The position numbers and the translations under genes were made by a program. 64,000 nucleotides of DNA from assembly GCA_951406725.2 (NCBI GenBank), contig OX597814.1:172298001-172362000 (forward strand). The letters are read 5' to 3'. Positions 6,085 through 25,662 of the stretch are shown piece by piece. Under the pieces are notes generated by a model that was not told the DNA's origin, did not search any database, and was given only the letters and a program-made list of their open reading frames with translations. Numbering within the stretch: position 1 is the stretch's first letter; each line of letters begins with the position of its first letter. This stretch comes from Octopus vulgaris (taxonomy: Eukaryota).

Positions 6085-6122
6085 CAGTACCGGTTTCGGT
6101 CATTTTGAGACCTTTTCAACTG
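6085..6122 (-). ncRNA. Minimal type I hammerhead-like ribozyme, U3-A8 core (mirror copy)
   Basis: Reverse complement of 6153-6190. Confidence 0.65.
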
Positions 6123-6152
6123 TAATGATTAAATAATTAAATTTAATCGTTA

Positions 6153-6190
6153 CAGTTGAAAAGGTCTCAAAATGACCGAAACCGGTACTG
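6153..6190 (+). ncRNA. Minimal type I hammerhead-like ribozyme, U3-A8 core
   Basis: CAG [TTGAAAA] GGTC-TCAAAAT-GACC [GAAAC] CG [GTA] CTG. Helix I CAG/CTG, helix II GGTC/GACC, palindromic helix III ACCGGT. Confidence 0.65.
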
Positions 6191-6729
6191 AAATGTTCAC
6201 TATAAAATTATTTTAGCATTTTCTATTTTTGACTTGTTTTTTCATATATATCAACTCGTGTGTTCCTTTTCACCCTTATATATATATATATATATTATAT
6301 TATATTAAATTAGAGAAAAAACCACTATTAGGCAAATCATATATATATATGACGGGCTTCTATAGTGCTGGTATGTGCGTGTGTATGTTTTTACGTATAT
6401 ACTCCTACGCCTTTGCGCCAACGTGTGTATAAGTTGTAATTCAAAAGTTCACATTTGTCCAGTTGTGGCATGTTAATTCTGCCTCGGAATTACATGAAAG
6501 TTACAAGTGTCTATGTAAAGCTGAACCACTGTAATACTAATGCAATGAGTAGGCAATTAGATCGATGGAACGATTGAATATTCAAAGTCGAAACCGACGG
6601 GGAATGTATGCATGTAAACGAACAGAACAGGATTGCAGGGACCACAAAAAAACCCCCAAAAAAACAAGAACTGTGGGCGTCCAAACCTAACTCCTTGTTT
6701 TCTGCCCCAACAGACCACCAGTCTCCGAC

Positions 6730-6847
6730 CTGTGGCAGAGCCCTCCGTGCAAGCATCGAATTGATCGGCGACAGCCGGACATATCGTGTCCCGTCTTCTT
6801 CTTCTTCCATGTTATGTCCTTGGTCATCGCCGACAACGACGGACGAA
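6730..6847 (-). CDS. Weak candidate exon containing a start codon (MEEEEDGTRYVRLSPINSMLARRALPQ)
   Basis: Unique, relatively GC-rich island with acceptor atcAG at 6849-6848, AACATGG Kozak context (ATG at 6810) and donor CAG|GTCGGA at 6729. No recognised homology. Confidence 0.22.
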
Positions 6848-8498
6848 CTGATAACGTATGAATGCTTATGAGTATATATATGTATATCCATTTGTGTCAA
6901 TATCTGTATGTGTGTATATGCATTTATATAAATATGTGTGTGTGTGTGTGTGTGTGTGTTTATGCGTGTGTGTATACATATACACATGAACAAATTTGTA
7001 TCTGTATATTCTTATATGTGTACATACAGTGTGTATGTATATTTATATATGTACTTGTATATATGAATTTATCTGTATGTGTGTGCGTATGTATGTGTGT
7101 GTGTGTGTGATATGTGTGTGCGTGCGTGTGGTCGTGATTTCCGTACGTTTCAGCTGAATGGAAGTGTCAGTGCGAGTGTAAAAGCCTTGATTGCAGAAAA
7201 CTGGCTTCCTGGCTACAGCACAATTGGTTTGACGGGTGCATGAGTAGGACCAGTTCCGTTTTGATACGAGAAACACAGCTGAAGTCGTCAGAGAGGCTCC
7301 AAGTTCATTCTCCGTGCCATCCACGCTTCATTGCAAGTGTTGATTGGATCTGTTCGAGATTTGAACATGGAGAGTAGAAAGAGCGTGTGAATGGCGTGAG
7401 GAAATATTGTAAGGAATAGGATTGGAGGAGAGAGCGAGAGAAAGAAAGAGAGAGAGAGGGGAGAGTGGGGTAGAGGGAGATAGAGAGAAAGAGAGAGAGG
7501 AAGACAGATACAGAGACGGAGACAGAGAGAGGGACAGAGAGACAGGTAGGGAGAGAGAGAAAGAGAAAGTATAAGGGAGATGTAGAGACAGAGAGATAGG
7601 CAGAGATAGAAGTGTGTGTACTTGCATGTGTATATAGCTTTCTCTGTGTATGTGTGTGTATGTGAGTGTGCTTGCGTGTGTGTGTATGTGTGTGTGTGTT
7701 TAGAGGGTAGAAGGGTGAGAAGAAGTAAAAAGAGAAAGAAACGAGAAGAGAGATAAGGGGACAGAGATTTATGTCTGAGTTTGTGAGTGTTGTTTAAGAA
7801 CATACATGTGTGTGTGTGTGTATAAATGAATATGTATGGTGTGTCTATGTGTGTGTTGTGTGAGGAATACAGAGGAGTAAAAGAAAGAGACATAGAGAGG
7901 AAGAGACAGAAGGAGAAAGAGAAAGATAGAAATGAAGCAGAGAGAGGAAACAAGGAAATGCTATGAATGCAAAGGCAGAGAGAAATATGAAAGAAAAATT
8001 GGATGTGAGAGAATGTGAATGTAGATTTGTGTGTATTTGTGTTTGTGTTTGTGTGGACAACAGACATGCATCGAGAAAACCAAAAGCATTTTATTATAGA
8101 AAGTGTGAGGGAAAGATGATGCTTGTGTGTATATGCTTGTGTGTGTTTGGGTGCAAGTGTGTGAAGTAGAGAGGTAGAGAGAGATACAAGAAAGCGAAAG
8201 ATCCAGAGCATGAAAGATATGTGGTTGCAAGTAATAACAAAAAGAGAGTGATGGAATAGATGCGCGCACGCGCACGCGAGAGATAGAGAGAGAGAGAGAG
8301 AGAGAGGCAGTAGGAAAAAAGGAGAGCAGAGGAGACGGATGAAAAGAAATAGAGAATTATGAATGAGTGTGTAAACAGGAAAAATAGTAAAATACAAAGT
8401 ATGGAAGAGAGCAATGGACTCTCGGGGGAAAATGTTGTATGGAAATAGAAAATAAAAAAATAAATAATAGATAAGTACTGATATTACTATTGGTTGTT

Positions 8499-8650
8499 AA
8501 GGCGGCGAGTCGGCAGGATCGTTAGCACGTCAGCTGAAATGCTTAGCGGCATATCGTCTCTTTTTCCGTTGTGAGTCCAAATTCCGCTGGGTTTGACTTT
8601 ACCTTTCATTCTTTCATGGTCCATGAAACAAATACCAGTTGAACACTGGT
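8499..8650 (+). mobile_element. SINE family B, diverged
   Basis: AAGGCGGCGAGTCGGCAGGATCGTTAGCACG..TTTACCTTTCATTCTTTC. Confidence 0.75.
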
Positions 8651-23100: not shown

Positions 23101-23824
23101 CTTTCTCTGTGTCTTTAACACTATACCACTCTCTTTTTGTCCTCGTTCATATAATTTCATTCTTTCAATCTTACACAGATATTTTCCATTCATTTCTCTC
23201 TCTCCTACTCCTGTCTCTCCCTCTCTCTCCCTCCATTCTCTCTTTCTCTCTGTCTGTCTCTTTCTTTCTCTCTTCACTTCCCATCTTAATTTTGACAGTC
23301 ATACTGTATTTCTGACTACATTATCCAATGTGTCCTCTTACGAATGGTTCTATGTATGTCTGTATATACAAACGAACGTGTGTATACACACATATTTATA
23401 ATCAACTTTACAAAACGTACACACACACACACACACACACACACACACACACACACACGCACTCATTCTCTCTCTGTCACACACACACACAAAAAGGTGC
23501 TTATATACAAGGAGAGATAGACGTCTGTGTTTCCATATTCTAATGTCCTTTGTTGAATTCTACACAAACTCTTTCACATTTCTGTTTCAAGTCTCGTAGA
23601 CCATGATACTTATGGCCGAATTGGGAGTATTATTGCAGTATCGGTCGAAGTATTGCTCTTTGATGTTATGCAGATTAATACCGTCCTAATTCTATTGTTG
23701 TTGTTGGTGGTGGTGCTATTGGTTAACCTTAGATCAACCCTGATTGACTATTAACGTAACCAAATAACAGATTAAGTCTGTTCAGCGTACAACAACAAAA
23801 ACAGCACTAAACTAATGAAAAACT

Positions 23825-24476
23825 GCCTGGTTCTCCGTCAGTTATGACGACGAATGTTCTACGTTCTAAGGGATTCGATCAACGGAAAAGATGGCGCGCA
23901 AAATTAATGTGCCAGCGGCTGAGCGCTCCAGAAACACACGTACCCCTAACGTAGCTTTCTGGGAGTTTCAGTTTGACTCAGAATGCGACAATGCTGGACC
24001 TTTAAACTACAGGTACAAGTAATTTTTGTCAGTTGAGCGGACTGGAGCAACGGGAAATAAATTAACTTGCTCAAGGACACAATGTACCGCTGGGAATTAA
24101 ACCCACGGATCTTTTCACTTTGACCGGCAGATTTTTAAAACAATTTCTTTGAAACTAAACACTTTTAAACCTCGTATACTGGTAGTGTGTTACATAAAAC
24201 ATCTTTTTCTCTTGGCTTTCTTGAGAAAATTCTGTAGTTTGTAAGCTATTTCTTGTTTAATTTCTTGCATTTCAGCAATTTCAACCAATCAATGACGTCT
24301 GTTGAGGTGAATACAATATCTGCCGTATTTTGTCAACAACATTTTCTGGTAATGTAACACACTACCAGTATACAAAGTTTAAAAGTGTTTAGTTACAAAA
24401 AAATTATTTCAAAAATCTGCCGGTCAAAGTAAAAATCAAGAGCTGAATACCCATTGGTCACGAAACCACGTGCCTT
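23825..24476 (-). mobile_element. CORE-type tRNA SINE family D, interrupted by a MITE
   Basis: Minus strand has head GGCACGTGG.. at 24476-24438, then B-box-like GGGTTTAATTCCC and GTGTCCTTGAGCAAG..TTGCTCCAGTCCGCTCAACTG from 24107 downward. Confidence 0.7.
24108..24437. mobile_element. MITE with about 85-bp terminal inverted repeats
   Basis: GATCTTTTCACTTTGACCGGCAGATTTTT..GGTAGTGTGTTACAT pairs with ATGTAACACACTACC..AAAAATCTGCCGGTCAAAGTAAAAATC. Confidence 0.85.
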
Positions 24477-25199
24477 CTAATAAAAATTAACGTAATGTAA
24501 ACCCAAAAACTTGTAGTTGAGTAAACGTAGCTATGTAAGAAGAAAGTGTATGAAGCAAATCATTGTGAATATGTCTTATTTATATAAACATCACATATAA
24601 ACAGTAATACACATACACTCACAGTGCTTTATACACTCAAGTAGACGCACATCTACGTTTATCTTATACCCATGACCCAACCGTTTCAATATACACACAT
24701 AATAATATAGTGATGTTTTAAGAAAAATTTCTACAGTTGCAGTTACATCCAAGGTGATATGAATTTTAACTCACACACTACATGAAATTATTAATATGCA
24801 ATCCATTATACGCATAAACATTTATGAGAAATTGAAAGATTTCAACGAGCAAGCAAATATAAGTTCTGAGCAGACCTATAAACAAATGTTTTCCAGTATT
24901 GACCAAGCCATTTTTTGTATCCTGTCTAAATCTACTTCCTGTAACAACACAGTAATAATAGTATGTGATTTAAGGGGATTTGGTTGCTATTCCTGGCAGG
25001 TTGAACGATCACATAGACCCTTCCTTGTTCGCACATTGTTGTAAGTGTTGCGTGTTGTATAGCCTCAGGTCAATCCTGACCATACGGATATATAGGGTGT
25101 CCATTAATTACATTTACAATTTAGAAATTCATATATACATGTATGTATATATATATATACACACACACACACACACACACATACATATATATATATATA

Positions 25200-25330
25200 A
25201 CGGGAAGCTTTATGAAAATAAACAAAAGACGAAGGCAGGTGGAAAACAAACGAACAATTGTATTAGTATGGCGCTCAGGAAATATAAATAAAACAATTCT
25301 TTAACGTTTCGAGCCTACGTTTCGAGCCTA
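25200..25330 (-). mobile_element. Truncated family E element in (TA)n
   Basis: Homologous to 27905-28095 and 48416-48602. Truncated inside the HHR with a 13-bp duplication ACGTTTCGAGCCT. Confidence 0.65.
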
Positions 25331-25623
25331 TATATATATATATATATATATATATATATATATACATATTTATATATATATACATAGATACATACATACA
25401 TACATAGGCACACATATTATATATGTTACAAAAAGAAACTAGAATCTACACGTGGAAATGTAAGGGGAAAGTAAGAAGAATAATAATAAGCGAAAATGCA
25501 CATTGGAAATCAAAACAAGTAAAGACTTTTTATGAAAAGTAACGATAGTTTTATACAATTAGATGAGCTGAAGAAGGAATAAAAGTAATAAAAGTCATTA
25601 TTGTGAATTGTTAAAGAGATTCA

Positions 25624-25662
25624 AAAGCATACCGGTTTCGTGAATTTACTAATCATTGCTTT
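25624..25662 (-). ncRNA. Minimal type I hammerhead-like ribozyme, A3-U8 core
   Basis: Minus strand: AAAGCA [ATGATTA] GT-AAATTC-AC [GAAAC] CG [GTA] TGCTTT. Helix I is 6 bp; helix II is weak. Confidence 0.55.

Follow-up and report, generated by a model that had tools for sequence, protein, structure and literature searches.

Minimal type I hammerhead ribozymes are carried by the Penelope-like retroelements of metazoans, and the set described by Cervera and De la Pena (2014, PMC4209133) includes, in the Cercyon element of Schistosoma mansoni, a variant whose core positions 3 and 8 read U3-A8 rather than C3-G8. The C3-G8 pair forms in the active hammerhead conformation (PMC3884650), and natural U3-A8 was presented as its first natural covariation by Perreault et al. 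(2011, PMC3088659). In contrast to the octopus motifs described below, the accessible text of that report names U3-A8 alone and draws no tie to retroelement phylogeny. Here we analyze a 64,000-nucleotide stretch of the Octopus vulgaris genome (hereafter the window; GenBank assembly GCA_951406725.2, contig OX597814.1, positions 172,298,001 to 172,362,000, forward strand), from a source genome that is 2.8 Gb in size, A+T-rich, and assembled in 227 contigs. Four loci in the window carry hammerhead motifs with U3-A8 or A3-U8 cores. We consider it probable that such pairs are the norm in four families of Penelope-like elements, of which the window holds truncated copies, and that the 3-8 pair has likely switched at least four times as selection likely kept a cleavage-competent fold.

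Short-stem-III hammerheads that cleave as dimers were reportedly described by Lunse, Weinberg, and Breaker in 2017, and by its title and a review account that study concerns the same structural class. Like the elements in PMC4209133, the octopus sequences have a type I layout, a short helix I, a palindromic minimal helix III, a U3-A8 core, and in one case an extra base after A9; they likewise form a 3' repeat behind a reverse transcriptase (RT) and GIY-YIG frame and occur as inverted close pairs. However, the 56-motif alignment in that source, as far as its accessible part goes, is C3-G8 throughout save for two U3-A8 and one U3.G8, with no A3-U8 or G3-C8, whereas the norm in octopus is a pair other than C-G, and three different pairs of this kind occur in one related family set. 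The descriptors given there would miss the octopus motifs. The Anolis Poseidon element PAc (PMC11167929) belongs to the same element class. Its natural core is C3-G8, a single C3G or G8C change abolishes cleavage, and the double mutant partly restores it; thus, the G3-C8 pair that is a laboratory mutant in Anolis is natural in one of the octopus lineages. Non-LTR retrozymes (bioRxiv 10.64898/2026.07.22.740005) also carry type I hammerheads related to Penelope-like repeats, as far as the accessible account describes them, but the window loci lack head-to-tail units and trace to protein-coding elements.

A previous sequence-only reading of the window had proposed that the A3-U8 class is the less familiar and might be undescribed in this lineage. 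U3-A8 is already published, for natural hammerheads (PMC3088659) and for Penelope-like elements (PMC4209133). No report of natural A3-U8 or G3-C8 in Penelope-like elements was found in our literature search, which returned only PMC3884650 and PMC4209133 and did not extend to the 2017 dimer-hammerhead study or to Przybilski and Hammann 2007. What matters most is the repeated compensatory switching of the 3-8 pair within one genome, and the G3-C8 subfamilies go beyond what that earlier reading contained.

Hammerhead motifs in the window and their host elements

Motifs were sought with a descriptor that leaves positions 3 and 8 free. Its strict form finds four motifs in the window, each with a GAAA-CCGG-UA ending and a helix I of 3-6 bp, with cores at 6156-6162 (+), 6113-6119 (-), 18832-18838 (+), and 25650-25656 (-); 60 block shuffles gave 0.1 matches per window and none with a Watson-Crick 3-8 pair. 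A relaxed form that accepts one additional base behind A9 and a helix III with no loop brings in only the core at 14106-14112 (-), and 100 shuffles gave 0.01 motifs per window, again with none Watson-Crick at 3-8. The resulting five motifs, located at four loci, form a three-helix junction with U4, G5, A6, A9, G12, A13, A14, and A15.1. All five have a Watson-Crick 3-8 pair (U3-A8 in three, A3-U8 in two), as the sequence-only reading had stated, and its core letters and coordinates were all correct when the sequence was re-read. No canonical C3-G8 motif in the 64-kb window passes the descriptor. Neither the best 150 of the 287 rows that Rfam gave for the window nor dedicated Rfam scans at loci 3 and 4 include a hammerhead family.

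The motif at locus 1 (6153..6190, +; helix II at 6163-6177) is a minimal type I hammerhead with U3-A8, a palindromic helix III, and a predicted cut after 6187. Its mirror (6085..6122, -; core 6113-6119) is part of the same insertion event, as the two arms differ at one site, and so there are four independent loci rather than five. The motifs at locus 3 (18828..18873, +) and locus 4 (25624..25662, -) are both A3-U8. Helix I has 4 bp at locus 3, where the cut is predicted after 18869; at locus 4 helix I has 6 bp, helix II has 2 bp, and the predicted cut follows 25630. Loci 1, 3, and 4 have a GUA triplet and a CCGG palindromic helix III, an arrangement that permits dimers. Locus 2 (14079..14115, -), which carries U3-A8, is a different sub-type of minimal hammerhead. 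It failed the strict descriptor and has an extra G at 14105, a 3-bp helix I, a loop-less helix III, and a UUU triplet. Its family has A-U at 15.2/16.2, and the window copy has G.U there through a private A-to-G change at 15.2. The earlier proposal that all four loci keep one full layout therefore applies to loci 1, 3, and 4.

Penelope-like insertions are marked by inverted end duplication, 5' truncation, a one-sided tail of 30-40 nt, and microsatellite targets (PMC8557442). This anatomy, as expected for endonuclease-bearing Penelope-like elements, is found at locus 1 (6024..6278), a 5'-truncated end with an inverted duplicate that is 95-98% identical to both ends of a longer genomic copy, L064. 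Its arms (6024-6134 and 6141-6251) differ by one mismatch, a tail of about 27 nt (6252-6278) is present on one side only, and the insertion lies in (TA)n. In L064, two outward-facing copies of the locus-1 motif flank a 784-aa open frame with RVT_1 and GIY-YIG domains, and the named relatives of this protein in a homolog search sit in bivalve gill-symbiont assemblies. Locus 2 (13908..14277, -) is a truncated 3' end that is 93% identical to L194, a long copy of its family. The upstream frame in such copies matches Pfam GIY-YIG over the cut-off, and its endonuclease protein is distant from that of family 1 (27% identity over 48 aa). Locus 3 (18755..18968, +) is an old 3' remnant with 70-80% identity to its relatives, two of which (L171 and L185) retain RT/endonuclease remnants upstream. 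Locus 4 (25384..25665, -) is a truncated 3' end with 85-88% identity to L012, L007, and L094, and the remnants in its relatives lie 160-380 nt upstream. The upstream same-strand remnants of families 3 and 4 are 34-65% identical. Inverted motif pairs occur at 21 of the 298 loci fetched from the genome.

Because of the inverted duplication, the one-sided tail, the (TA)n target, and the upstream GIY-YIG and RT frames, the four loci are, as judged from their sequences, the truncated 3' ends of four mutually related Penelope-like families. The sequence-only reading had placed them in unrelated repeat families, which is not the case, since all four are related lineages with GIY-YIG, with or without RT, upstream. 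It had also left the choice between Penelope-like elements and retrozymes. The coding relatives favor the former, and non-LTR retrozyme identity is rejected for the window loci because no head-to-tail tandem array occurs at any of them. U3-A8 also occurs in a further Penelope-like family (L276-L295), whose helix III carries a CAUG palindrome. Among the GIY-YIG matches in the genome, many fall in 781-aa open frames, which suggests recent activity.

Family norms and likely switching of the 3-8 pair

Genome-wide counts were compared with reversed-pattern controls, and the breakdowns for family 4 and for motifs with a pyrimidine at position 3 are hand tallies of the matches listed. A search for family 1 that imposed no base at position 3 or 8 gave 2066 matches (control, 0), with U3-A8 present in all 100 listed. 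Family 2, picked through helix II alone, has 3847 (control, 0), with the exact variant core in 18 of 30 copies and the canonical core in none. Among 29 relatives of family 3 picked by homology, 24 have A3-U8 and the others have single changes or a gap; identity to the family majority is 94% in the core and 82% in the flank. Family 4 has 151 matches (control, 0), of which the 100 listed comprise 80 A-U, 14 G-C, 4 A.C, 1 C.C, and 1 U.C. Each of the four families has the variant core as its norm, and the window copies are not double-decayed canonical ribozymes, because no family majority is canonical (100/100, 18/30, 24/29, and 80/100 variant). The canonical CTGANGA consensus that the sequence-only reading had named as the finding that would undo its proposal was looked for and is not seen.

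Motifs with the CCGG-UA ending number 7247 genome-wide for a pyrimidine at position 3 (control, 168; U3-A8 in 96 of the first 100 listed), 385 for A3-U8 (control, 71), 157 for G3-C8 (control, 41), and 42 for C3-G8 (control, 14). When loci were entered instead through GIY-YIG (best 30 of 150 scored), 13 of the 30 have a motif downstream, with 12 U-A, 1 A-U, and no C-G; two of the 17 without a descriptor match show a U3-A8 core by eye. Non-C-G cores dominate these genome counts, in line with the earlier suggestion that CUGANGA-based searches would miss such motifs. A canonical core with a GUC triplet does occur elsewhere in the genome, in a head-to-tail repeat of about 359 bp with an inversion (L150-L156, G000:C1:20002278-20004542) and in two more clusters. 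With one type I C3-G8 hammerhead per unit, this repeat looks like a non-LTR retrozyme. A high-copy repeat of the form C-UGA-UU-A...GAAACCGGUC (L130 type) was ruled out as a hammerhead, as it is without helix I or II.

Copies share descent and are not independent, and therefore the subfamily is the unit of comparison. Among the subfamilies examined, none has a mismatched 3-8 majority. The locus-4 lineage holds both G3-C8 and A3-U8 subfamilies, and a DNA tree of 60 trimmed copies (positions 3 and 8 masked, midpoint root) nests A-U inside successive G-C subfamilies. The nearest G-C and A-U groups (15 and 6 copies) have only three other majority-site differences in 426, and thus both pair partners changed on a very short branch; the chance that both named sites would be among so few differences is about 1e-4. 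Helix I is also altered on both strands between subfamilies. The A.C copies are not supported as evolutionary intermediates, since three of the four sit within derived A-U groups and resemble decay. A protein tree of 31 of 36 rows (the five left out were a duplicate, three that were long or aligned poorly, and one whose label was uncertain) has four changes among U-A, A-U, and G-C, and with all 36 rows it has five. A single A-U clade is rejected on the 31-row tree (p-AU 5e-5). It is therefore likely that the 3-8 pair switched at least four times in the source elements without staying mismatched. This repeated switching suggests that the self-cutting fold is under selection. The lack of 3/8 covariation genome-wide, which the sequence-only reading had said would count against it, is not observed; the pairs covary among U-A, A-U, and G-C.

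Proposed cleavage and competing explanations

A plausible mechanism can be outlined. In tandem element transcripts, the palindrome of helix III (ACCGGU; AAUU in family 2) would let two motifs pair, and the dimerized motifs would be expected to cut slowly after N17. Minimal hammerheads in other elements cut only as dimers, and slowly or poorly (PMC4209133). The element's own protein probably assists, by analogy with the Anolis element, whose cleavage requires it (PMC11167929). Because position 8 works through its 2'-OH (PMC2920678), any Watson-Crick partner at position 3 might hold it in place and any such pair can serve.

These steps would concern the source elements rather than the window copies, which are probably inert fossils because they are either locked in a hairpin (locus 1, where a transcript across the locus is predicted to fold as one long hairpin of -117 kcal/mol) or are without a same-strand partner of their own family anywhere in the 64-kb window (loci 2, 3, and 4). 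The earlier description of these sequences as selected ribozymes is thus fitting for the source elements, given the pair switching, and probably not for the truncated copies.

Several points weigh against the proposal that selection has kept a cleavage-competent fold. Self-cleavage of all octopus motifs is a prediction. In the locus-4 lineage helix II is no longer than 1-2 bp, and in families 2 and 3 helix I has just 2-3 bp. Pairing of C3 with G17 is an inhibitory trap (PMC3884650), and by analogy helix I of family 1 could be lengthened by a pair between U3 and A17. Two same-strand motifs occur at 3 of the 298 fetched loci (mostly 3 kb, centered on truncated copies), and in none do they form a same-strand pair of one family's motif; the tandem transcript needed for dimers is therefore assumed. 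In Anolis, mutating the ribozyme did not affect in vitro insertion, and RNA ends at the cut site were not seen, according to the accessible part of that study (PMC11167929). The DNA tree, which has 6-7 label changes, does not resolve the branch point between G-C and A-U. About four events underlie the covariation, and because the protein pieces are short and partly frameshifted and several forks are unsupported, four switches is an estimate. Finally, at least three family-1 copies are C3-G8 (G000:C13:524775, C5:30322882, and C15:22392206). In a family of thousands of copies these may have changed twice by chance, or they may form a small subfamily that is canonical.

The position 17 trend is also worth describing. 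Motifs of the CCGG type mostly have A17 in the non-C-G families and C17 in the canonical ones, and A17 avoids a G3-C17 trap and permits U3-A17. Exceptions include L289, with A3-U8 and C17, and some U3-A8 motifs with U17.

Other explanations can be judged against this evidence. Perhaps the fold no longer cuts and persists, 3-8 pair included, as a structural handle for protein binding or template recognition in retrotransposition. The tiny helices and the possible U3-A17 pairing of the octopus motifs fit such a role, as do the poor cleavage of minimal motifs even as dimers (PMC4209133) and the Anolis findings that cleavage depends on protein and that insertion in vitro does not need cleavage (PMC11167929). 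However, every family examined keeps U4, G5, A6, A9, G12, A13, and A14 and avoids G at position 17, and the 3-8 pair belongs to the active conformation (PMC3884650). We therefore regard loss of cutting as unlikely. A different concern is that the 3/8 letters drift unselected in a few source elements and that amplification then mimics covariation. U-A and A-U agree with the A+T bias of the genome, independent events number only about four, and relatedness inflates both the copy counts and the Fisher p of 9e-14. Yet all subfamily majorities seen are Watson-Crick, G3-C8 opposes the base bias, the G-C/A-U switch falls on a very short branch, and three of the four A.C copies lie inside derived A-U groups, as decay would predict. 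Drift of this kind seems quite improbable to us.

The remaining two proposals carry far less weight. A3-U4-G5 spells AUG, and the start codon of the Anolis element lies within its hammerhead region (PMC11167929), so A3 might have been selected as the start of the element protein with U8 following. The frame from this AUG has a median of only 11 codons in 53 copies, exceeds 50 codons in 2 of the 53, and in the window copies is 9 and 11 codons long, which leaves this idea with very little to recommend it. We give practically no credence to the view that the window copies are canonical CUGANGA ribozymes that each decayed twice; the few family-1 copies with C3-G8 are in its favor, but the family tallies, in which no majority is canonical, refute it. 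Selection for a cleavage-competent fold in the source elements is the account that we prefer.

At 6141-6155 and 18800-18830, a U-rich tract ending in CAG lies directly before the core and resembles a splice acceptor. In Penelope of Drosophila virilis, an intron ends at helix I. The family-1 motif region was compared with contigs of four sequencing runs that are not on record as RNA; no joints appeared, and contigs cannot show ends.

Other repeats in the window and implications

The window contains several other features. An open frame at 30654-32330 (+) encodes a LINE-type reverse transcriptase (RVT_1, E 2.5e-25), and a broken mariner/Tc1-type transposase lies at 60636-61894 (Transposase_1, E 1.4e-17). 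Three short frames at 19206-20589 (-) resemble a broken retroelement ORF1 and have no Pfam match. A perfect 357-nt inverted repeat at 33671-34778 flanks a 394-nt segment in which two 88-bp units stand in tandem. SINE-like repeats form tandem runs at 1914-2422 and 3421-3788 (184 and 183 bp), with dispersed copies at 8862, 11561, 26122, and 39501.

Hammerheads may merely parasitize Penelope-like elements (PMC8557442), and their benefit to these elements is debated, given that catalytic mutants in Anolis left in vitro insertion unharmed (PMC11167929). Under selection for the fold, a pair found specifically in the active conformation would be expected to show just such repeated compensatory swaps. 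A broader reading is tentative, and we lean slightly against asserting it in full: that Penelope-like elements here dropped C3-G8 and cycled through U-A, A-U, and G-C, that these are the first natural A3-U8 and G3-C8 cores of such elements, that the active fold is needed in vivo though seemingly dispensable in vitro, and that CUGANGA searches miss nearly all ribozymes here. The locus-4 lineage, with near-identical natural G3-C8 and A3-U8 versions, is suited to a clean kinetic comparison. Descriptors that fix C3-G8 would overlook thousands of motifs in the octopus genome, and if the broader reading is true, then clades called hammerhead-less would need to be re-checked.

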